From Escherichia phage vB_EcoM_EP57, in the sequence record OR544956: a DNA stretch of 64,000 nucleotides; one strand, written 5' to 3'. Positions 3,481 through 61,606 of the stretch are shown here, piece after piece. A program made the position numbers and the translations under genes. Within the stretch, counting starts at the first letter, position 1, and every line of letters starts with the position of its first letter. The notes under the pieces are model-generated. The model did no database searches. It was not told the DNA's origin and was given only the letters and a program-made list of their open reading frames with translations.

Positions 3481-5325
3481 TTAACCACCAGTGTTAGATT
3501 GTCCACTTAGAGTTGAAAGAGATAAACGTTGGAAAATGCTATTTCCGCTATTTTGAATTCTTGCATCAAGAATATTTCCAAACTCTGAAGAAGGGCTGAT
3601 CGTAACTTTGATAAGATCACTTGGTATTGCTACCGTATTCTCAACAACAGGTTGATTACGAGCCAAACTTACATTAGGTGTATATGCCGACTGACGTAAA
3701 TCTTCCAGAGGATTACCAAATCCAAAAGCACGTGTCCTTGTTTGTTCTCCTCTCCACATACGACCAATATCTTGTGTATCAATACCTGTTAAATTGTACA
3801 ACCAATCTGCTACAGGATTGCTGTCTCCACTTTGCGTTGCCTCGTATGCTTTTTGTGCTAAAGATTTATTAGGATCTGTGTCTTTAACGTTATCCAACCA
3901 AGAATCATCTTTAGGTAAGGCTTTCACAAAACCCTCTAAGAAGTGGTTCTGCATACCTTGACCTACAAGCTGAACTGTTGCAGCAAAACGAGTAAACTCT
4001 TTAGAAGCATCTATTTGTTCTTGAGTTAATGTTGCACCTGTTCTTTGAAGCATTTTCAATACTTCATTATACCCTTCGCCGTTTTTACTAAACATACGTT
4101 GGTAGTGCATAAGGTCATCACCAAGGTTTTCAAGAAGTCGCCCGATTTGAGCAGAGTTCATACCTCGACGCTCACCTTCATTAACAGTAGCCTGAATAAA
4201 AGCTAAAGGATCGTTCTGTAAAGGTTTAAGCTGTTCTGGATTCCATCCAAACAAGTTCATAATGTCATTTATGCCATTATCACCGCCTTTCCACTTCCCT
4301 TCTTTCTCATTCCATTTTGAGGCTAAAACTGTATTACCAAGACGTTCACGAACGTCTTTAATATTATCTATTGACTTAATAATATTTGCAGAGTCTACAC
4401 CGTTCTGTTCACCCCAAGCTGTCATCGCTAAAATAGAGTTGGCGTTTGTCTGAACGTTTTCAGCGCCACGACTTACAAGTTTAATTCTTTCGTTAGTATT
4501 CATCAACGTGTTACCAACTACAGAACCACCTGCAAACAGCCCAGCACCTATTAAAGAGGATGCAATCATGCGTGGATTAAGACCTGCTGCACCTTCTTTT
4601 AATTGTCCATATCGACGATCACGATCACGTTTTTGTTGAGCTAATTCACGCTTACGGTTGCGTTCTATATCTCTAAGTTCACGATTTCGCATACGTATAC
4701 GCATTTTAGCTTCTGCTTCTAGCTCTCTACGAATACGGCGACGACCGCGAACCTCGTCTTCTATTTCAGCATTCTTTTCACGATGAGATCTGCGTAAGGC
4801 ATCTAACTGGTGAGCAAGAGCTTGGTTCATACGTTGAAGAGTTATTTCACCCTTTTTGTATTGCTCTACAGCTTTACCCATAACGTCCCTAGCTTCTTGC
4901 ATAGCCCCAGGACTGGCTTTACTAAATGCTCTTGCTCTGTAGTTAAAGTTCTGCAAACGAAGATTACCTAAATCTTCCCTACGTGCTGCTGCTTTAGCTT
5001 CGCGTTCAGCAGCTTTACGAGCTTTTTCTTCTTCTCTTCCTTGCGGGGTTTTAGGAGTTCTAGGTCTACCAGATCCGCCTACAGGAGCACCCGCTCCAGC
5101 GGGAGTAGGTGCTCGCATAGGTTTTTGACTTTGAGTTTGAGCTTTCTTAAGTTCACGCTCAATCTCTTTCATTTGTTGTCTAAACTTGGTCATGTTCATA
5201 GTGGGTTGCATTTTATTTGCAAACTTCTGAACACTCAACACGGCATCTTTTGCTTCCTTGAGACTGTTCTTGTCCACCTTAAACGTAACCACGTTACTAA
5301 TTTTGGAGGCGTTAATTTCTAACAA
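3481..5325 (-). CDS. tail tape measure protein
   Basis: 614 aa; long charged coiled-coil region; Gly-rich hydrophobic segment (IASSLIGAGLFAGGSVVG); directly downstream of a frameshifted chaperone pair. Confidence 0.55.
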   Translation of the reverse strand: MLEINASKISNVVTFKVDKNSLKEAKDAVLSVQKFANKMQPTMNMTKFRQQMKEIERELKKAQTQSQKPMRAPTPAGAGAPVGGSGRPRTPKTPQGREEEKARKAAEREAKAAARREDLGNLRLQNFNYRARAFSKASPGAMQEARDVMGKAVEQYKKGEITLQRMNQALAHQLDALRRSHREKNAEIEDEVRGRRRIRRELEAEAKMRIRMRNRELRDIERNRKRELAQQKRDRDRRYGQLKEGAAGLNPRMIASSLIGAGLFAGGSVVGNTLMNTNERIKLVSRGAENVQTNANSILAMTAWGEQNGVDSANIIKSIDNIKDVRERLGNTVLASKWNEKEGKWKGGDNGINDIMNLFGWNPEQLKPLQNDPLAFIQATVNEGERRGMNSAQIGRLLENLGDDLMHYQRMFSKNGEGYNEVLKMLQRTGATLTQEQIDASKEFTRFAATVQLVGQGMQNHFLEGFVKALPKDDSWLDNVKDTDPNKSLAQKAYEATQSGDSNPVADWLYNLTGIDTQDIGRMWRGEQTRTRAFGFGNPLEDLRQSAYTPNVSLARNQPVVENTVAIPSDLIKVTISPSSEFGNILDARIQNSGNSIFQRLSLSTLSGQSNTGG

Positions 5326-5345
5326 AGTATGTTCCTCGTGTTGGA

Positions 5346-6094
5346 TTAAACAAGTTTCTTAAACAAATCTGACATTTTATTTGTCTGGTTTTGATGTTTT
5401 CTCTTTATTGAAGTGTCTTTAACATACATGGCTTCAACATACTCTTCGTATGTTAAATACTCATATAGTTTTAAAAGATAATCTACACCGTAGTTATCCA
5501 ATGTTTTCAGTGTTTCCGAGGTATCTTTAACGACTTTGCAAAGAATAACCTCATACCACTTCAAAGTAAGGGTTTTCGTTGCTGTGTCGATAGCATGTTC
5601 AATCGCAGGTGTTAATTTGCTGCTAAACTCGTCATCGCCTGAAGCTGTGTGAACAGTTTTCCGAAACCTCGTTTGAAAAAAGGGCCGTAGTTTACCTCCA
5701 GAACTTTAGCAGTAAGATCTAACACTAGTTCTGGGTGAGCCATAAATAATTCATCAAAATTTTCTGCAACGTTATAACCGTCTTGAGTATAAACCTCATC
5801 TAAAATTTTACGCAAAAATACAGTTAAATTCTTTTCTTCCAAACCTGCAAAAAGTTGGATCAGTGCCATAGCAATACGTGACTCAAGGTCTTCGTCTGCG
5901 GACATTGTTGCTGTGCTATACATAGTCATAGGAACAACCAGAACACTACCCAATTCTGGAATCCTGTCAAACACTTTAGATGGACTCCACTTCATAATAC
6001 GGAAAGTAACAGATCTGTTTCCATCTAACGGAATCTCAACTACTTCTTCTGGTCGAGCATATTTTTGAATCGTGTTATCTTGTTCTTGTGACAT
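5346..6094 (-). CDS. tail assembly chaperone, -1 frameshift fusion product (GT-like)
   Basis: -1 frame is open from the slippery site (plus 5675..5681) through the 5346..5564 ORF. Confidence 0.45.
5612..6094 (-). CDS. tail assembly chaperone (short, G-like product)
   Basis: 160 aa ORF upstream of tape measure; slippery T_TTT_TTC near its 3' end. Confidence 0.5.
   Translation of the reverse strand: MSQEQDNTIQKYARPEEVVEIPLDGNRSVTFRIMKWSPSKVFDRIPELGSVLVVPMTMYSTATMSADEDLESRIAMALIQLFAGLEEKNLTVFLRKILDEVYTQDGYNVAENFDELFMAHPELVLDLTAKVLEVNYGPFFKRGFGKLFTQLQAMTSLAAN
5675..5681 (-). promoter_or_regulatory. -1 programmed ribosomal frameshift slippery heptamer T_TTT_TTC
   Basis: Minus-strand codons ccT TTT TTC in the zero frame of the chaperone gene. 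Confidence 0.45.
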
Positions 6095-6139
6095 ATTTTC
6101 CTCTCTAATGATAAAAAGGGCATTTCTGCCCTTTATTTA

Positions 6140-6591
6140 TTATTGAATTGTCAGAGCAGAGATTGAGTTAAGGGTGCTCAAACCTACACCAACTTCATTA
6201 CGCAGAAGACTTGCATCTTTAAGACCAATAACCCATTGGTTCTCTGTAATCATTTCGCCAATAGTATCTTCAGGCTGACTTTGAATCCATCCAATCGTGC
6301 TAATGTAATAGCCACGTGGGTCTTCCAAGTAAACACTGAACGCTACTTGACGAGTAGAATACATTGTTTGTGCATATGTTGCAAGCAAGACATTGTGAGT
6401 GTTCCCAAACGGTTACGACTCAAAGCTAGTGAAACGTCGCCATCAGTCCCTGAATAAGGGTTGATAATATCGTTAGATTTAGCAATAACGATTTTAGTAT
6501 CAGCCGCAAAACCCCACGGTTCCCAACCACCTAATGAAAGGATAACTTGAGATGGGTCGTAGGCCATTACGCCAGTAAGCATTTTATCCAT
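6140..6591 (-). CDS. tail tube protein-like gene, reading frame disrupted (ORFs 6343..6591 and 6140..6388)
   Basis: Two overlapping same-strand ORFs; second is in the -1 frame; RBS AAGAGGA before ATG at 6591; position between sheath-like and chaperone genes. Confidence 0.35.
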
Positions 6592-6637
6592 TATAGATCC
6601 TCTTTATTTTGATAACGGGGGCTTAACCCCCGCCGTA

Positions 6638-8011
6638 TTAGTTTGCAGTACGGTTAGTCAGGACGTTGACCTGAACTTTAACGTAATGGAAGAAGCCAGC
6701 GTAAACATATTCAATCTTCATCCCATCGACCAGACGAGCATTGATTTGCGCATCAGTCATATCGGCACGAGAAGGAATATAAACAATAGGTTTCAGATCG
6801 ACACGCAAACCAGTCTCTTCAGAAGTAACAACTTCATTAGCGATGGAACCGTTGAGGATACCTACTTGGATTGGGTTAGCCAGAACAGCTTGTCGAATCA
6901 AAGCCAGACCGTTTGAAGTAGCACGAACACCACCACCCAGCATAGACTGTTGTTTAAACAGTGTAAACAGTGATTCTTCTGTGCGAGCTTTAAACCACAA
7001 AGCATGAACAACATAGTCAACAAAGAAACCGCTAACCATCAATCCATCACGATAGAACAGAGTTCCATGCTCTTTACGATAGATGTTACCGTTCTGTTGA
7101 ACAATATTGTTTTCCGAAGTCTGATCCAGTTTCTCGATCTCTACACCTACCAGTGTTTTACCGTGAAGAGTAGTTAAACCAGGTTGACGAGAACAGATTG
7201 CACCAACAACTGCTGCTTCTGGGAATACAGAATCTGCATCGGTCATCCACAAAGCAAAGCAAGTGTTATTATAACCGAGGTCATTCAGTCGTTCCAGAAC
7301 GTTATCTTCTGCTTTCGTTTTAATTCCAGGTTCAGAACTAGAGAAGAAGTAAACTTTATCATTCTCTTCTACCCATGCAGCCAAAGCTAGAACATCTTCT
7401 GTTTCATGGGAATCTGAAAGGGTCCAGAACCAGCTACTATCAATATCATGCAGAGCAGCGATATCTTCCGTAATAGCATTAGCATAGACAGTTTCTTGAG
7501 TGAAACCTGTGCTGTCAATAGAACCAAACTTACCTTCTACTGGAGTGAAAGTCATTGCAGCGCCGTTGTTAGCTACTGTAAACAGTGGGCCATAAACAAG
7601 ATCTGCATTGATCATTTCAGTCAGACCAACTACAATCTCTTGTGCAGTTGCAGTGTCATCAGCAATGAATTTAAATTCTTTTTTCTTGGTACCATTTTTG
7701 ATGGTAATTGTGTAAGTTGCACTATCTTCTACGATTGGAGTTAGAGTAAAGTTTGTAACTTCACGCTTACCAACCATGACTTGATCTGGTGGGAACAAAC
7801 CGTTAAACAGTTTGACTGCCATAATATACGCTGGATCATTTAATCCATAACCTGCTTCCAAAAGTGCATCGGAAGAAGAGTAATATTGAATCGCTTCGCC
7901 AGTTACGTTCTGACCTGTAAGGATCAGGGGAATATCGAACTGGGTTTCACGAATTGATGTAGCACCATACAGTAAAGTTACGGTTGCTACCTTTTCACGA
8001 AAAGTTGCCAT
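6638..8011 (-). CDS. tail sheath protein-like
   Basis: 457 aa ORF directly upstream of tube-like gene; size and position typical of contractile-tail sheath. Confidence 0.4.
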   Translation of the reverse strand: MATFREKVATVTLLYGATSIRETQFDIPLILTGQNVTGEAIQYYSSSDALLEAGYGLNDPAYIMAVKLFNGLFPPDQVMVGKREVTNFTLTPIVEDSATYTITIKNGTKKKEFKFIADDTATAQEIVVGLTEMINADLVYGPLFTVANNGAAMTFTPVEGKFGSIDSTGFTQETVYANAITEDIAALHDIDSSWFWTLSDSHETEDVLALAAWVEENDKVYFFSSSEPGIKTKAEDNVLERLNDLGYNNTCFALWMTDADSVFPEAAVVGAICSRQPGLTTLHGKTLVGVEIEKLDQTSENNIVQQNGNIYRKEHGTLFYRDGLMVSGFFVDYVVHALWFKARTEESLFTLFKQQSMLGGGVRATSNGLALIRQAVLANPIQVGILNGSIANEVVTSEETGLRVDLKPIVYIPSRADMTDAQINARLVDGMKIEYVYAGFFHYVKVQVNVLTNRTAN

Positions 8012-8045
8012 TTATGCTCCTGTTAGAAACTTAATTCCAATGAGT

Positions 8046-8684
8046 TTATTCGGTAGGGTTGTTAAATAATGATCCATTTTGATTGACTGACGAGTATTCG
8101 CCTGGAACCAAAGTAATTGCATAAACCCTGTTTAGAATTAAATCTAAAGGGATAGGATCATTGTAACTATCTCTGAATGAACGGATGTGCATGTTGATTG
8201 CTTCTATTGGTGTAGTAGCAATATCTTCAATACTCATACGAGTGTTGAACGTCATAACCATACGCGCTCTTAATTCAGTCTTATCTCCGTCTACAATTGT
8301 ATTGGCTTGAGCTATATTGGAGGCTCCTAAAAAACCAAGACCTTTAGAATAGAGATGTTTGTATTTTAATTCCTCTGCACCACGGAGAGCAGCCAGAACA
8401 TAGCTCATCAAAGTGGTAGGTCTTCCACGATAGGCTACAAGTTCAATCTCGTAGGTATTATCCATCTCGTAGGAATACATATCATTTTGAATAGAGCTTC
8501 GGTAAGACCAACCTCCAGAATCGCTGGAAGTGATAATATGTAGTGCTAGGTAAGGAGTATCCGGTTTAATGAATGGCTTATCCATAACATAGACTGGCAA
8601 CCCCACTAATTCTTGAAGGAAGCCACCTATATTTAAGTAGATGGCATTTTCGTATGCTTCTATTTGTTGGTAAATATTAGCCAC
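8046..8684 (-). CDS. hypothetical virion protein
   Basis: ORF track 212 aa; between head and tail genes. Confidence 0.3.
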   Translation of the reverse strand: MANIYQQIEAYENAIYLNIGGFLQELVGLPVYVMDKPFIKPDTPYLALHIITSSDSGGWSYRSSIQNDMYSYEMDNTYEIELVAYRGRPTTLMSYVLAALRGAEELKYKHLYSKGLGFLGASNIAQANTIVDGDKTELRARMVMTFNTRMSIEDIATTPIEAINMHIRSFRDSYNDPIPLDLILNRVYAITLVPGEYSSVNQNGSLFNNPTE

Positions 8685-8780
8685 TGTTCTGTTCCTTGTT
8701 GTAACCCCTTCATTTCTGTTTTAGTCCAGAAACTATATTGAGCCTTAGATCTGTAACCTTCAGGTAGTGCATTCAGTGTT

Positions 8781-8972
8781 TTACCAGATATCGGTTGTAA
8801 GCTTGCCTTCAATGGTAAATGGTTCATATTCTACACTACTTTCTAAGTTAGCAATAACTGAACCAACAGCCTCTTTGTAGACTCGTCTACGACCTTGGTA
8901 TTCAGTTAGATCAAGGAGAGTAAATTGATCTAGTAACACTTGTATCTCCTTTTTAGTATACATCAAAAACAA
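8781..8972 (-). CDS. hypothetical protein
   Basis: ORF track 63 aa. Confidence 0.25.
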   Translation of the reverse strand: MFLMYTKKEIQVLLDQFTLLDLTEYQGRRRVYKEAVGSVIANLESSVEYEPFTIEGKLTTDIW

Positions 8973-15258: not shown

Positions 15259-17334
15259 TTATCTTTTACGGACACTATACGGTTGGTGAAATCCGCTGTT
15301 CATTCTACTGTATCCTGTAGGAGCATTTGTTGTTGTAGGGATAGCTACTGCTTTGAAAGTATTCTCTTTTGACAGAGTATTAAAACAAGAGGCAGCAGCA
15401 TCGGGAATGTCATCTTTAATAGTGGCTGTAGATCTTTCACCATTGAAAGATTCCAATTCTTTATAAAAGTGGGTTAAAGTCTCCACATTAGGGAAAGAAT
15501 CTTCAACAATATAAACAAAACCGTTTTGACACGCACTACTAAAAGGCATGAAACGCTGAAGCTTTTTCTTGTTACCTGGCATAGCATCTGGTTTAACAAC
15601 AAAACCCTCTAGAATAAGTTTCTTTGCAGACTCTGTGTATTCTATTGTCCCAGCACCAGATGGGTCTTTAGGAAGCACTACTGTAACTTCTGGTCCATCA
15701 ATCTTACATTGATTTAGAATCAGGTTATCCCTTTCCCCAGGTAGTCTTCGAAACCTTCCGAAAATTTTACTTTTCTCATCCACAGCATCATAATCATAGT
15801 CGCCAAAGATGTAGATATTACCATCTTGGTCTTTACCCATTTTGACAGATGTTGTATAGTCTGGATAACGGTAAGTTTCTGTAGGAACTGAAACAGCTTT
15901 ATCCCATGCTCGCATTAGTTTAAGATTGTTAGGAACATCTTTATAAGATATTTTATGTAACCATTCACGTTGAAAGAAAGATTCTTTCTGGATACGTGCA
16001 AACCAACAACCGTCCAGAAGCTGTGCTCTTTTGATCGCTGTTTGTGATTTAAGCTGTGCTAAGTAATTAGGGTTAAGCCTAATGAGTTCTGGGTTATCAA
16101 ATATTGTCCCACCAATAAATACGAAAGTTTGTGGTTCAATAACAACTGTCTCCCCTGTATTAGGGTTTTCCATGAAACAGTTTTCTGGATATTTTTCTTT
16201 CAGTTCTTCAGGTGTGTCAGCAAAAACAGGTTCATCGTTAACAATGATGAAATATTTTTGTTTACCACACATATCTTCTCTAGGATAACCACCCTCATCA
16301 AGATAAGGTAACACCCAATTCAAAACCCAACTATCTGCGTCAGGGTTACATGTGCACAACATGAAACTTGTTTCTGACTCTGAACGCATACGTCCCAGAA
16401 GATAGAGCATTTCATATTGTGTGAAGTGGGTTAACTCGTCAAAACCTACCATTGAATACTGTGTACCCTGATGGTTTGTTTCTGCTGTTACGTTATCATT
16501 TTCCAAATGGTCAAATTTGAGGGTTCCGCCACCAGTGGCTTCAAAAATGATATCCATTGTACTTTCTTTTACGTGTGGTTGTAAAGGAAGATACAAACGT
16601 TTTGCTTCTGTAAACAGACCACCTGGTTTACGGTGAGCAGTGGTGTTCTTACGGAAAAGTATTCCACCAAACAAAGGGTCTTTGTAGGCGTATTTTAAAG
16701 CTTTCAGCAATAGCAGACGAGACTTGCCGCTATTCCCAGTAACGAAGCAGTGATCGCCACGTCTAAAGACAATATAGCTGCTTGGAGTCTCAAAACAATA
16801 TTTCTTATCATCTGTTGAAATAACCTCGTGTATTTTTAAGTAAGTGCTCTTTTTACCAGGTATGTTAAAAGGAACACGTTTACCGAATGGATTTTCTACA
16901 TAACCTTGCAGGGGTTTTCCTATTTGCTGTAATGCAATAAGATCTCCTACAAGAATCTCGAAATGTTTCTTTGATTTCTTTTTCTTATAGAATACAAAAC
17001 GGTGTTCCATACTAAGTTCTTGGAATAATCCTACACCATTTGTTATTCTGTATAGGTTATCTCCATTTAAATCGTATTCTACAAAATAAGGTGTTACCAA
17101 TTCTAAACGCTTATTCTTAGGATTGTATTGGTAAATATCCTCTCCCGAATATTCACTAATCTGCCTCCAACCATCTTTTGTAAGATATTCCGTTTCAGCA
17201 GAAACACATCCAGCGGCACCACCATAAATCATAACCTCTGGCATTAAATCCATTGCAAGAGTCTGTTTACCTGGTTGAGCCTTTACTTCAATATCTACTC
17301 CAGCTAAACTACCTGCTGCCTTTTTCTTTGCCAC
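15259..17334 (-). CDS. terL: terminase large subunit, intein-containing
   Basis: Walker A GAAGSGKS is restored when residues 43-201 are removed; Walker B MVGFDELT. Confidence 0.8.
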   Translation of the reverse strand: MAKKKAAGSLAGVDIEVKAQPGKQTLAMDLMPEVMIYGGAAGCVSAETEYLTKDGWRQISEYSGEDIYQYNPKNKRLELVTPYFVEYDLNGDNLYRITNGVGLFQELSMEHRFVFYKKKKSKKHFEILVGDLIALQQIGKPLQGYVENPFGKRVPFNIPGKKSTYLKIHEVISTDDKKYCFETPSSYIVFRRGDHCFVTGNSGKSRLLLLKALKYAYKDPLFGGILFRKNTTAHRKPGGLFTEAKRLYLPLQPHVKESTMDIIFEATGGGTLKFDHLENDNVTAETNHQGTQYSMVGFDELTHFTQYEMLYLLGRMRSESETSFMLCTCNPDADSWVLNWVLPYLDEGGYPREDMCGKQKYFIIVNDEPVFADTPEELKEKYPENCFMENPNTGETVVIEPQTFVFIGGTIFDNPELIRLNPNYLAQLKSQTAIKRAQLLDGCWFARIQKESFFQREWLHKISYKDVPNNLKLMRAWDKAVSVPTETYRYPDYTTSVKMGKDQDGNIYIFGDYDYDAVDEKSKIFGRFRRLPGERDNLILNQCKIDGPEVTVVLPKDPSGAGTIEYTESAKKLILEGFVVKPDAMPGNKKKLQRFMPFSSACQNGFVYIVEDSFPNVETLTHFYKELESFNGERSTATIKDDIPDAAASCFNTLSKENTFKAVAIPTTTNAPTGYSRMNSGFHQPYSVRKR
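16732..17208 (-). other. mini-intein (159 aa) inserted in the terminase P-loop
   Basis: Begins CVSAETEYLTKDGW (Hint block A), ends ...FVTGN followed by Ser; no endonuclease domain evident. Confidence 0.55.
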
Positions 17335-18830: not shown

Positions 18831-18909
18831 TGGAGGCGGGAATTGGATTTGAACCAATGATCTCCAGCATATGAAACTGGCGAGGACGACCAGACTCCTC
18901 TATCCCGCT
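18831..18909 (-). tRNA. tRNA-Met (anticodon CAT), 1-72 pair unpaired
   Basis: Hand-folded cloverleaf; T-loop TTCAAAT; anticodon loop TTCATAT; CCA encoded; A1 opposite C72. Confidence 0.55.
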
Positions 18910-18915
18910 ATTATG

Positions 18916-18985
18916 TATCCCGTGCTGGATTCGAACCAGCATCACAATAAGCTGTGGAACTCTTATCCTGTAAGTCTAACGGGAA
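18916..18985 (-). tRNA. tRNA-like element, non-canonical anticodon arm (possible pseudo-tRNA)
   Basis: Canonical T-arm GCTGG-TTCGAAT-CCAGC and 6-bp acceptor stem, but no 5-bp stem with 7-nt loop can be formed; no CCA. Confidence 0.3.
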
Positions 18986-18987
18986 AC

Positions 18988-19061
18988 TGGTTGTTTCGAC
19001 AAGAATCGAACTTGTGTCTCACGATTATCAGTCGTGGGTTCTACCATTGAACTACGAAACA
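18988..19061 (-). tRNA. tRNA-Ile (anticodon GAT)
   Basis: Hand-folded; anticodon stem CACGA/TCGTG, loop CTGATAA; CCA encoded. Confidence 0.65.
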
Positions 19062-19067
19062 TTAAAT

Positions 19068-19144
19068 TGGTCGGAATTGCAGGATTCGAACCTGCGACCC
19101 TACGCTCCCAAAGCGTATGCTCTACCAAACTGAGCTAAATTCCG
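19068..19144 (-). tRNA. tRNA-Pro (anticodon TGG)
   Basis: Hand-folded; D-stem GCTC/GAGC; loop TTTGGGA; T-loop TTCGAAT; CCA encoded. Confidence 0.65.
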
Positions 19145-19237
19145 TCATAACATTCTAAAGGTACACCGCAAAAGAAAGTGTTCGGCGGCTCCTCGTTTTT
19201 AACTTCACACTTGAGGTAGTGACTCACCTTTGTTATA

Positions 19238-19313
19238 TGGCTGGTCTGTCTGGATTTGAACCAAACCTACGACAGTCAAAGTGTCGTGTGCTACCGGACT
19301 ACACTACAAACCA
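19238..19313 (-). tRNA. tRNA-Gln (anticodon TTG)
   Basis: Hand-folded; anticodon stem CGACA/TGTCG, loop CTTTGAC; CCA encoded. Confidence 0.65.
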
Positions 19314-19411
19314 ATAAATCATTTAATGAAGGGCAACCAGAAGAGGTGTGAGAGAAGGAGAAAACCATGAGTAAAAGAGAAAGTTTTCTGGCAACCCTTT
19401 ATTAAATAATT

Positions 19412-19485
19412 TGGAGCGTTCTACGAGGATCGAACTCGTGCCGCCGACTTGGAAGGACGGAATGCTACCGCTACACCAAGAACGC
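19412..19485 (-). tRNA. tRNA-Gly (anticodon TCC)
   Basis: Hand-folded; loop CTTCCAA; one U-U mismatch in anticodon stem; CCA encoded. Confidence 0.6.
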
Positions 19486-19493
19486 CCTACATC

Positions 19494-19523
19494 TTTACTA
19501 TACTACATTTTACTATTGGTTGT
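19494..19523 (-). promoter_or_regulatory. sigma70-like promoter upstream of tRNA-Gly
   Basis: Minus strand AACTATTGACAA, 18-nt spacer, TATAGT. Confidence 0.4.
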
Positions 19524-19801
19524 CAATAGTTTTATTGAGTGGGACAGTGACGAGTATCCCGTTGGGTGACTAGCCCTACGTTCGGTAAGCTAACTTAAAA
19601 TAATACAAAACCAAAGTCAAATATTATTCTTCGTTGCTGTCGATGGGAGAGCCGCTTCTCATTTTGCCCCATCCAACCCTACTCCGGTCAAGTTTCGGGT
19701 AACTCTTTTTGTGTGATCAACACAATACTAAGAACACTGTCTTTCGAACAGACCTTGTGCACAGGATACGACGATCAATCACAGTGCTCTTAATGTTGTG
19801 T

Positions 19802-19876
19802 TGGTGCTCCCACACTGAATCGAACAGAGATCCACGGATTACAAAACCGTTGTAATAGCCATTATACTATAGGAGC
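19802..19876 (-). tRNA. tRNA-Thr (anticodon TGT)
   Basis: Hand-folded; loop TTTGTAA; T-loop TTCGATT; CCA encoded; one mismatch at 31-39. Confidence 0.55.
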
Positions 19877-19882
19877 AAAGCT

Positions 19883-19959
19883 GGGACTCGGCAGGATTCG
19901 ATACCTGCAATTCCAGAAGCCTCTTGGCGACTGGGGGTTTACCTTAACTCTACAAGTCC
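19883..19959 (-). tRNA. tRNA-like element, non-canonical (8-nt T-loop, no standard anticodon arm)
   Basis: 7-bp acceptor stem GGACTTG/CGAGTCC; T-loop TATCGAAT; central region forms an irregular hairpin; no CCA. Confidence 0.3.
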
Positions 19960-19966
19960 ATAATTC

Positions 19967-20052
19967 TGGCGATGAGTATAGGATTTGAACCTATATCGTT
20001 CTTTCGAACACGGATTAACAGTCCGCCGCTTAAACCATTCAGCCAACTCATC
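19967..20052 (-). tRNA. class II (Ser-type) tRNA with anticodon GTT
   Basis: 86 nt; Ser-like D-arm TG-GCT-GAATGGTTTA-AGC; anticodon arm GCGGA-CTGTTAA-TCCGT; 15-nt variable arm with GTTC/GAAC stem; G73; CCA. Confidence 0.5.
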
Positions 20053-20058
20053 TTAATT

Positions 20059-20146
20059 TGGTGGTGAGTGATGGAGTTGAACCACCCGAATCGCAATGAT
20101 AACAGATTTACAGTCTGCCCCGCTACCCCTACGGAATTAACTCACC
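20059..20146 (-). tRNA. tRNA-Tyr (anticodon GTA)
   Basis: 88 nt class II; anticodon arm GCAGA-CTGTAAA-TCTGT; T-loop TTCAACT; CCA. Confidence 0.65.
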
Positions 20147-20224
20147 TAAATACTAATATTTAAATTCTTTTTAAAATAGCCAGTGTTCACACCACTAACT
20201 ATGTAAGCCATATTAAAAAGAACT

Positions 20225-20310
20225 TGGCGGTAGATGTAGGACTCGAACCTACACGCCGTTTCCGACTACAGTTTAGCAAACTGTCGTGGCTACCATTTCA
20301 CCAATCTACC
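20225..20310 (-). tRNA. tRNA-Ser (anticodon GCT)
   Basis: 86 nt class II; anticodon arm ACAGT-TTGCTAA-ACTGT; G73; CCA. Confidence 0.65.
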
Positions 20311-20315
20311 TAATC

Positions 20316-20406
20316 TGGCGGAAGGAGGGAGAGTCGAACTCCCAAGGCTCTTTCAAGCTCGGCGGTTTTCAAGACCGTTTTCGTCGCCACGTCGATTTGC
20401 CCTTCC
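20316..20406 (-). tRNA. tRNA-Ser (anticodon TGA), D-arm degenerate
   Basis: 91 nt; anticodon arm CGGT-CTTGAAA-ACCG; variable-arm hairpin GCTT-GAAA-GAGC; G73; CCA; D region lacks U8 and a regular stem. Confidence 0.5.
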
Positions 20407-20640
20407 ATACTTATAATCTAACATAAAATAATGTTTGTTGTCAATAGTTTTTTAAAACATTTTACCATGAATGGTGACTCCACCAACCCCCGTTCTCCAC
20501 GAACGGTGCTCTTCGAGCATTTATGTCTTCTAATATAACCGTGGCCTTTGTTTATAATGTCTGACATACTTGCCTCATTCTCTGCCACCATGATCAGTAG
20601 TGGGTTCAAATTACTTGAGCTAATTCATGTTAAAATGTTC

Positions 20641-20715
20641 TGGTGTCTTTACAAGGAATCGAACCTTGACTAAGAGTTTAGAAGACTCCTGTGCTATCCA
20701 TTACACCATAAAGAC
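20641..20715 (-). tRNA. tRNA-Arg (anticodon TCT)
   Basis: Hand-folded; anticodon arm GGAGT-CTTCTAA-ACTCT; CCA. Confidence 0.65.
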
Positions 20716-20717
20716 GT

Positions 20718-20792
20718 TGGTGGCCCTGGCTGGTTTCGATCCAGCTACCTATCGGTTATGAGCCGACAGCTCTCCCATTGAGCTACAGGGCC
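20718..20792 (-). tRNA. tRNA-Met or tRNA-Ile2 (anticodon CAT)
   Basis: Hand-folded; D-stem GCTC/GAGC; anticodon arm GTCGG-CTCATAA-CCGAT; T-loop ATCGAAA; CCA. Confidence 0.6.
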
Positions 20793-22609: not shown

Positions 22610-23409
22610 GCAACTATCCAATTACAGGCGTAACCTATTCTTGTGTAGCAAAAGGTGGTTTATATACAGTAGTGGAATTTCCAAAACCTGCCGGAATATC
22701 TAAAGTGTTTGATCCTGTGGTTATCTATGAAGATCTTAGAACAGGTCAACGTTACTGGAGATTTGTGAATGACTTTTTAGATCGTATGGAGGTAGTAAGT
22801 GGCGAAAACACCGAAGAAGTTATCAAAGCCAACGTTACTAAGAAACCGAAAAACGAGGTTCTCAAAGTAGCCAAATCAGTTCCTAAGAAAGATAAATTTG
22901 ATACGGAGGCATTCGTCTTTGACACACCAATCGAGAAGATTGAAGAAGCGTTGCAACGTCTTGAGGAGCAGGAGGCAGATCCAATGGCTGAACCACTCGC
23001 TGAAGCAAAAAACATTGGTCGTTCCAATGAAACAACACCAGAAGAACAAGCTGAACTTGAAGCTTTTGCCAAATGGACAAAACAGTTAAAGAATGGCTAT
23101 TATAAAACAAAAGAAGAAGCTGAAAACCATGTTCCTTCCACACCAATGAAATGCCAGGATTATAAAGATTATCCTGAAAGGGTTGTGTTCCCTGGTTATG
23201 CACAATACAAACTGAACGGGTTACGTTCTATGATTAACATGAAAGGAGAGTGTTTATCAAAAGCTGGGGAAGTGTACAACCTGCCACCTCATTGGAAAGG
23301 TATTCCAAACTTTATTAGTGAAGTTGTTGGTCATCCTCTTGATGGTGAAGTGTTTGCTGGGTTAGGTGTCCTTAGTCTGCAACAAATTAACAGTGCTTGC
23401 AGTAGTTGA
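22606..23409 (+). CDS. ATP-dependent ligase-like nucleotidyltransferase, N-terminal part (frame-interrupted)
   Basis: Motif I-like KLNGLR and motif III-like HPLDGEVF near the C-terminus; ORF ends soon after. Confidence 0.4.
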   Translation: MSNYPITGVTYSCVAKGGLYTVVEFPKPAGISKVFDPVVIYEDLRTGQRYWRFVNDFLDRMEVVSGENTEEVIKANVTKKPKNEVLKVAKSVPKKDKFDTEAFVFDTPIEKIEEALQRLEEQEADPMAEPLAEAKNIGRSNETTPEEQAELEAFAKWTKQLKNGYYKTKEEAENHVPSTPMKCQDYKDYPERVVFPGYAQYKLNGLRSMINMKGECLSKAGEVYNLPPHWKGIPNFISEVVGHPLDGEVFAGLGVLSLQQINSACSS

Positions 23410-23869
23410 AGATTATGGTCTTGATGAGCTTATTTGTGTAGTTCATACAGAGTATATTGAAAACCAAGAACAGTTTGATGCTTTCTATGAAAAAGCTTTA
23501 CTTGAGAAAGCTGAAGGTGTAGTATATCGTAATGCTCACGGAGTTTACGAATTTGATAAACGTTCTTATGACGTTATTAAACGTAAGCCTCGCCATACGC
23601 TTGAAGTTAAAGTAATAAATTCAAAAAGTGATAAAAATGGCGATGGAGTGTTGACAGGTGAGATGGAAAATGGTAAAGTAGTCGAATTCTTAATGCGTAA
23701 AGATGCTCATGAGACTATCAATTATCGTAAAGCAGAGAATGCTTCTACCTTGATTAATCAGTTCGTTGAAATAGAGTATGAAGAATTTTCAGATGAAGGT
23801 ATTCCAACAAAACCTGTTGGTGTTCGTATTCGAGAAATGATCCCAGGCACTTGGGAACCAGCAGAATAA
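23366..23869 (+). CDS. ATP-dependent ligase-like protein, C-terminal part (+1 frame)
   Basis: Motif IV-like EGVVYR and motif V-like VIKRKP; overlaps upstream ORF by 44 nt. Confidence 0.4.
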   Translation: MSLVCNKLTVLAVVEDYGLDELICVVHTEYIENQEQFDAFYEKALLEKAEGVVYRNAHGVYEFDKRSYDVIKRKPRHTLEVKVINSKSDKNGDGVLTGEMENGKVVEFLMRKDAHETINYRKAENASTLINQFVEIEYEEFSDEGIPTKPVGVRIREMIPGTWEPAE

Positions 23870-24114: not shown

Positions 24115-24828
24115 ATGATCGAGAATTTTTTTAAAGATATTAAATTCGATACTGAATTTTTCAAAAATGCAGCAAAGCACGTAATTGATTGGAATGCCAA
24201 AGCACGAGGTGGTGAACAACCTGAATTCACTCAAGAGCTATTTATGTCCCAAATCGGGTTCGTTCGTGAAGAGCTTAAAGAGTATGAAACAGCCGCGAAA
24301 GTAAACGATCATGTAGAACTCTTGGATGCAGCAGCGGATATTTTTGTAGTATCCAGTTATCTTACTTACATGTTCTTTGGTGAAGAACATACGATGAATT
24401 TCTTGGACTATGCTGTAGGCGATGTTTTTACTCCAACTGTGTATACTGATTTTGATGCTTTGGAACAAACATTTACAGAGCCAGTTCAAATGGCACTAAT
24501 GGCTGCTGGTATTATGCGTATGTCTCGTGACACTCTAATCCGTTCAAAATATCCAGAAAAGAAAGTTATTAAAGAGGTATTGAAAAGTAATGATTCCAAG
24601 TATCCAACTAAACAACAGTTGCTGAAAACTTGGAAAACTTCGGATATCGATTCAGCCATTGCACAAGAATGCGCTGCAATTGAAGAACGAAATGCCAATC
24701 GTCCAGAAGGGGCATACACTGGTGTTCATGCTGTTTATAATGAAAAACAGAAAGTGTATGTGTTCTTTGATGATAAAGGTAAGATCATGAAACCATCGAC
24801 CTTTGTCAAACCTAATATTAATAAGTAA
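24115..24828 (+). CDS. hypothetical protein (weak MazG-like NTP pyrophosphatase resemblance)
   Basis: 237 aa; acidic helical motif VREELKEYE...DHVELLDAAADIFVV. Confidence 0.3.
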   Translation: MIENFFKDIKFDTEFFKNAAKHVIDWNAKARGGEQPEFTQELFMSQIGFVREELKEYETAAKVNDHVELLDAAADIFVVSSYLTYMFFGEEHTMNFLDYAVGDVFTPTVYTDFDALEQTFTEPVQMALMAAGIMRMSRDTLIRSKYPEKKVIKEVLKSNDSKYPTKQQLLKTWKTSDIDSAIAQECAAIEERNANRPEGAYTGVHAVYNEKQKVYVFFDDKGKIMKPSTFVKPNINK

Positions 24829-58026: not shown

Positions 58027-58114
58027 ATTTTCAAAAAATACGTCCCATCCGGCAAAAGGGCTGACAGCATGATTAAGTGATCTACAGATTCATTTTCTTG
58101 TTTCATATCCTCTC

Positions 58115-61548: not shown

Positions 61549-61606
61549 ATTACACCACCTTGCTCACGTTGATAATGTATACCATACATAAAATAAATGT
61601 CAAGGC

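Follow-up and report, generated by a model that had tools for sequence, protein, structure and literature searches.

The tube of phage phi92 is formed by gp131, which was seen by cryo-EM to build 24 stacked hexameric rings and which contacts the sheath through residues S95, Y97 and E99 (PMC13450770). In the cryo-EM model gp131 is a single tube chain of 159 amino acids, and our homologue search found it to be 92-93% identical in Justusliebigvirus records. In the relatives of the phage analyzed here the tube is annotated as one coding sequence of 480 nt (159 amino acids). The genes for phi92 gp131, phAPEC8_00159 and tuntematon gp151 all occupy the same slot, right after the DUF3383 sheath gene, and this is also the slot of the gene described below. 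A second well-described feature of tail gene clusters is a conserved -1 frameshift in the tail assembly chaperone genes, the lambda G/GT type, which was reportedly described by Xu et al. in 2004.

We compared these systems with a locus from a 64,000-nt stretch of DNA (Escherichia phage vB_EcoM_EP57, record OR544956), which we refer to as the window throughout. In this window, the gene following the sheath gene is distributed over two overlapping reading frames. The window comes from a phage of the genus Phapecoctavirus, a phAPEC8-like E. coli myophage within the Stephanstirmvirinae. At least 80% of the region 5300-8100 is covered by 126 phage records, and 64 records are 95-99% identical there. 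The closest relative in the phage collection is tuntematon, with 99.4% identity over 22.8 kb, and no identical genome was found in this collection. The records of Campylobacter phage B15 and Acinetobacter phage vB_AbaM_ABPW7 are about 98.5% identical over 5300-8100, and the record of Serratia phage KKP_3264 matched only a 121-nt query placed across the break in the tube gene. The host labels of these three records look doubtful.

The tail tube gene is split between two reading frames

The tail module lies on the minus strand and runs from the sheath gene (8011..6638) over the tube gene (6591..6140) and the chaperone gene (6094..5612) to a 72-codon ORF and the tape measure gene (5325..3481). 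The features of this region that are used below are the following.

6638..8011, minus strand: tail sheath gene, intact, 457 amino acids; Pfam DUF3383; matches phi92 gp130 (E 2e-235); 100% identical to the tuntematon sheath
6388..6591, minus strand: 5' fragment of the tube gene, authentic codons 1-68 (M1..S68); identical to nieznany through TCT at 6390-6388
6403..6409, minus strand: heptamer T_TTG_GGA, ordinary Leu-Gly codons; the sole X_XXY_YYZ heptamer in the two-frame overlap
6386..6388, no strand assigned: deletion junction; TTGCAACGCACATCTCCAGCTAACGAAG (coding strand, 28 nt) is absent, placement ambiguous by 1 nt
6343..6387, minus strand: out-of-frame tail of the first ORF, CLQHMHKQCILLVK followed by TAG at 6345..6343; these codons occur in no homologue
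6140..6385, minus strand: 3' fragment of the tube gene, authentic codons L79..Q159 and the stop codon; -1 frame relative to the 5' fragment
6115..6134, minus strand: terminator-like hairpin, bidirectional, AAAGGGCAGAAATGCCCTTT and then a T run; between tube and chaperone
5612..6094, minus strand: tail assembly chaperone gene, intact, 160 amino acids; Pfam Phage_TAC_15 (E 1e-23); PHROG 3840
5346..5708, minus strand: -1 frame extension of the chaperone, open across its 3' end; PHROG 16039

The first ORF of the tube gene starts with an ATG at 6591, with AAAGAGGA located 7 nt 5' of it, and ends after 82 codons. In the -1 frame, a TAA at 6415..6413 is followed by an open frame that extends from 6412 to the stop codon at 6142..6140. 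The ORF from 6591 to 6343, its ribosome-binding site and the open -1 frame down to 6140 had all been given in a preliminary description made from the letters alone, and all these coordinates agree with ours. A tblastn search of the window with the intact tube protein placed residues 1-68 in frame -2 and residues 76-159 in frame -1. Past the junction, the first ORF consists of downstream tube codons read in the wrong frame. The two pieces correspond to successive parts of a single protein family, and hence the split is genuine in this sequence and does not reflect two ORFs paired by chance.

A Pfam search with the two halves from the window returned no match, and the intact relative reached 24.4 bits against PF11681 (KPP10_Orf10, formerly DUF3277), which is borderline with respect to the cutoff of 25. 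Because no Pfam match exceeded the cutoff, the family was assigned from the PHROG 280 profile and from sequence matches to the PDB. Alignment of both halves to tube proteins, which the preliminary description had proposed as a check, placed them on consecutive segments of PHROG 280, the first piece on positions 3-67 and the second on positions 71-139. Among PDB entries, the intact homologue matched phi92 gp131 (21vm_A, E 2e-95) as well as 9cuy_J and 9cb9_B, two chains that bear the name 'Tail tube protein' (E 6e-30). Calling the locus a tail tube-like gene after a sheath gene was correct, with the homologue matching phi92 gp131 and the upstream gene matching the phi92 gp130 sheath. As to membership in the tube family, homology over the whole length and the expected gene order are both present, and a continuous ORF of about 150-160 codons is missing. 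The 3' fragment in the window includes S95, Y97 and E99, the sheath contacts of phi92. Compared to phi92 gp131 and the Phapecoctavirus tubes, however, the window copy is frameshifted, lacks 28 nt and cannot encode the 159-residue chain. We conclude that, as judged by homology and gene order, both ORF pieces belong to a single gene, the tail tube gene of an E. coli myophage of the phAPEC8 type (genus Phapecoctavirus).

The break is a 28-nt deletion found in the window only

In an alignment with nieznany and phAPEC8, the tube gene of the window has the nucleotide sequence of nieznany except for one clean gap of 28 nt. The break is such a 28-nt gap with respect to every relative among the matches displayed and not a single-base indel, which is not visible from the window sequence alone. 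The deletion takes out codons L69-E77 as well as base 1 of V78 from a gene that otherwise has 159 codons. If this segment is dropped from the normal ORF, translation from the normal start would leave the frame after S68 and would stop 14 codons on, and the authentic C-terminal 81 codons would be stranded in the -1 frame with no route into the tube protein.

A 121-nt query across the junction matched 130 phage records. Each of the 40 matches displayed (40/40) spans 149 nt, and no record among the 130 reached 95% identity; hence the junction occurs in none of these 130 records. Matches to the tube protein itself came from 489 phage records, and in 478 of these they covered 80% or more of its length; the protein is a single piece in 30 of the 30 matches displayed from these homologue-bearing records, at identities from 32 to 100%. 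A 36-mer spanning the junction was absent from viral, genome and metagenome contig collections, unlike the intact version of this region, which is present in public sequences. The junction had no match in E. coli complete genomes or plasmids, and the 82-residue product of the first ORF had no exact match on record. There is 1 nt of microhomology at the junction. In relatives, the region lies between two TTGCAAC repeats; replication slippage between these was considered and discarded, since it would excise 31 nt and not 28.

Frameshifting in the tail module is predicted at the chaperone gene

An unusual programmed -1 shift, at T_TTG_GGA or elsewhere within 6412..6346, might be thought to give a functional tube of about 150 amino acids. 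The overlap does contain a heptamer of the formal X_XXY_YYZ shape at a point where the -1 frame is open, and it had been recognized already that T_TTG_GGA is the only one there; this still stands, as the other heptamer, G_GGT_TTT at 6514..6508, lies outside the open -1 frame, at a point where that frame is closed. The overlap, however, exists only through the private deletion, and the homologues among the matches displayed, close or distant, have a single uninterrupted ORF. In phAPEC8, T_TTA_GGA stands in place of the heptamer, which is thus not conserved, and GGG in the YYY position is, to our knowledge, not among the efficient bacterial slip sites. In the 93 nt 3' of T_TTG_GGA, the search for a stimulatory structure gave a minimum free energy of -17.1 kcal/mol compared to a shuffle mean of -17.6 kcal/mol (z = 0.18), which is no better than chance. 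A shift at the heptamer would yield ...RLGNTHNVLLATYAQ... instead of ...RLGTLTMSLQRTSPANEVLATYAQ..., so that TLTMS would turn into NTHNV. In addition, the fused product would be devoid of at least nine residues that are aligned without gaps in all solved tube homologues, where the alignment runs gapless across the deleted LQRTSPANEV. Moreover, 16 other deletions in the window break reading frames too, and these cannot all be programmed. A two-frame architecture shared by homologues, a conserved slippery heptamer and a downstream structure are characteristics of a programmed -1 frameshift, and the tube gene fails on all three. We regard such a shift as scarcely conceivable, and on the sequence evidence a programmed shift at the tube gene is rejected.

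It is just as hard to believe that the tube is naturally split and that the two ORFs are small genes in their own right. Each ORF is listed mechanically with 82 codons, which could fit two small genes, but the 'TTG start' of the second ORF, at 6388, falls within the junction and is not preceded by a separate ribosome-binding site, and the last 14 codons of the first ORF are out of frame. The preliminary description had held that two separate small genes in the homologues would speak against a broken gene; the homologues have one gene, and among the matches displayed there is no homologue with two.

A -1 frameshift of the lambda G/GT type has a counterpart in the window one gene 3' of the tube, in the chaperone gene. 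Here, the slip site T_TTT_TTC (5681..5675) falls on codon 139 of 160. The -1 frame goes on for 110 codons and reaches 266 nt past the chaperone stop, so that the predicted fusion would comprise 248 amino acids. The same arrangement is found in rV5, Hena1 and a Barbavirus, with T_TTT_TTC again in the first two and G_GGA_AAG in the Barbavirus. In the phAPEC8 annotation, the last 72 codons of the extension are a separate hypothetical ORF. A slip site near the 3' end, a -1 frame of about 100 codons running towards the tape measure gene and conservation, by which a G/GT-type chaperone is recognized, are all found at 6094..5346. The lambda shift likewise sits in the chaperone gene, whereas the tube break in the window shows none of its defining features. 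We conclude that the real -1 frameshift site of the tail module is the predicted T_TTT_TTC of the chaperone gene. Frameshifts like this one in the chaperone gene are known already, yet records such as that of phAPEC8 carry no annotation of it. Between the two genes, the position of the hairpin at 6115-6134 coincides with that of a terminator annotated in phAPEC8.

Deletions are spread over the whole window

Compared to tuntematon, the 64-kb window contains 28 indels, all of which are deletions, with no insertions. Their sizes are 1, 2, 4, 4, 6, 6, 7, 10, 12, 15, 20, 26, 28, 28, 38, 39, 51, 61, 63, 65, 107, 122, 135, 144, 152, 152, 873 and 4044 nt. The same deletions were found in comparison to MRostami-2023b and phAPEC8 and are therefore private to the window. 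Besides the junction in the tube gene, the 27 further deletion junctions are located at the following positions.

Junctions, first part: 3881, 8683, 8806, 17333, 20203, 21780, 22100, 22463, 22529
Junctions, second part: 22831, 22998, 23399, 24815, 27309, 28281, 35662, 42256, 43852
Junctions, third part: 51114, 51356, 51531, 54086, 54186, 58053, 61574, 62444, 63847

The junctions look random. Microhomology is limited to 0-2 nt at 25 of the 28, with a mean of 1.2 nt versus 0.74 nt for random positions. The lengths of 17 of the 28 deletions are not multiples of 3, which is near the two-thirds expected without selection. Only three junctions, at 58053 (1 nt lost from a run of A), at 61574 (an ATGT tandem) and at 24815 (a 12-nt TATT repeat), have repeats of the slippage type, and these three deletions may be natural polymorphisms.

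A tblastn search with the tuntematon proteins revealed which genes are affected. The tube gene, the gp154 stopper gene and the genes for DNA ligase and an HslV-like peptidase are split or truncated, as are gp254, gp226, gp209, gp198, gp187, gp173, gp169 and gp274-278, and the Sir2 gene is gone from the window. About ten small genes are hit by deletions. Tuntematon gp154 (138 amino acids) is a homologue of the phi92 gp128 stopper (E 2e-71), and the corresponding gene in the window (8684-8939, minus strand) is broken twice: a 152-nt deletion at 8683 takes away the last 52 codons or so together with the stop codon, and a 2-nt deletion at 8806 shifts the frame. Similarly, the 4044-nt deletion has cost the gene for the ATP-dependent DNA ligase (22998-23866) its first 46 codons, and the 107-nt deletion at 23399 shifts its frame besides. 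The coding sequence of the large terminase is 100% intact, and a 6-nt deletion at 17333/17334 has taken out the spacer that separates its GTG start from the Shine-Dalgarno sequence AAGGAG. The tape measure gene (3481-5325) lacks 144 nt through a deletion at 3881/3882 with 0 nt of microhomology; the frame is kept, and the loss of 48 codons shortens the protein from 662 to 614 amino acids. If this deletion is real, a shorter tail would be predicted. The 51-nt deletion at 20203 was considered as a possible cause of tRNA loss, and this was rejected: it falls in the spacer between tRNA-Asn and tRNA-Ser, and the ten tRNA genes at 18831-20792 (Met, Ile, Pro, Gln, Gly, Thr, Asn, Ser, Arg and Met) are the same in tuntematon.

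The point differences give a different picture from the deletions. Altogether 306 were counted relative to tuntematon: 211 are synonymous and 71 non-synonymous, and the other 24 lie outside long ORFs. Other relatives share about half of the window alleles. Since the substitutions are mostly synonymous, the backbone is a genuine, selected phage genome. The private point differences are mostly synonymous as well (113 versus 31 non-synonymous), and hence the quality at the level of single bases looks high, which speaks against an assembly that is sloppy throughout. On this selected backbone, the deletions form a second layer that has not been under selection.

Origin of the deletions

The tube break is one of 28 private deletions on which selection never acted. 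Without tube, stopper and ligase, propagation of a strictly lytic phage is impossible, and we therefore infer that the deletions arose in the production of the sequence. We assign a probability of roughly 0.75 to the reading that the tube break is an unselected private deletion which most likely stems from sequence production and not from a propagating phage. Possible sources would be segments dropped in assembly or consensus building, or editing of the sequence. The window resembles low-quality or unverified phage records with frameshifted genes in that many genes are broken, a near-identical genome exists and the indels go in one direction. It differs from them in its clean deletions of 1-4044 nt, which are not homopolymer errors, and in substitutions that look accurate. 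Clean deletions of 28-150 nt are indeed not typical of base-calling errors, and this speaks against an artefact.

The alternative is that the deletions are real, that the window is a defective, non-propagating phage genome and that its tube gene is a true pseudogene. Examples would be a minority genome, or one of the defective-interfering kind, that is kept going through co-infection with a helper, or else damaged DNA of a phage that was picked up in a metagenome. The natural-looking, selected substitutions identify the backbone as real phage DNA, and the deletions are clean and one-directional, both of which would fit such a genome. It was also among the three options named in the preliminary description. 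Two of these, an indel of sequencing or assembly and a defective gene, are backed by the private 28-nt deletion with its 27 companions, and the third, a programmed shift, is not. On the other hand, one molecule would have to carry 28 independent deletions in 64 kb, without frame bias or microhomology. A strictly lytic lineage with 99.5% identity to viable isolates would have had to accumulate them in the absence of selection. Furthermore, several essential genes are hit together and complementation would have to cover all of them, and the tube-gene junction, the sole one searched for, is present in no second sequence. We consider real deletions unlikely on these grounds. A more specific version, namely that the window is physically a defective genome of a Phapecoctavirus in which more than 25 deletions arose independently of microhomology and for which tube, stopper and ligase are supplied in trans, appears very improbable. 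Such a genome could have come about by repeated nuclease cutting and end-joining, or it could be of the defective-interfering type and maintained by a helper.

An origin of the deletions in sequence production thus remains our preferred reading. A phage with exactly this sequence would be without tube, stopper and DNA ligase and could not form plaques. The finding matters mainly as quality control, in that an apparent 'unusual frameshift' in the tail tube gene comes down to a private deletion of 28 nt. As the 27 further deletions break other genes, caution is advised for any 'split gene', 'missing start' or 'short variant' that is derived from this window.
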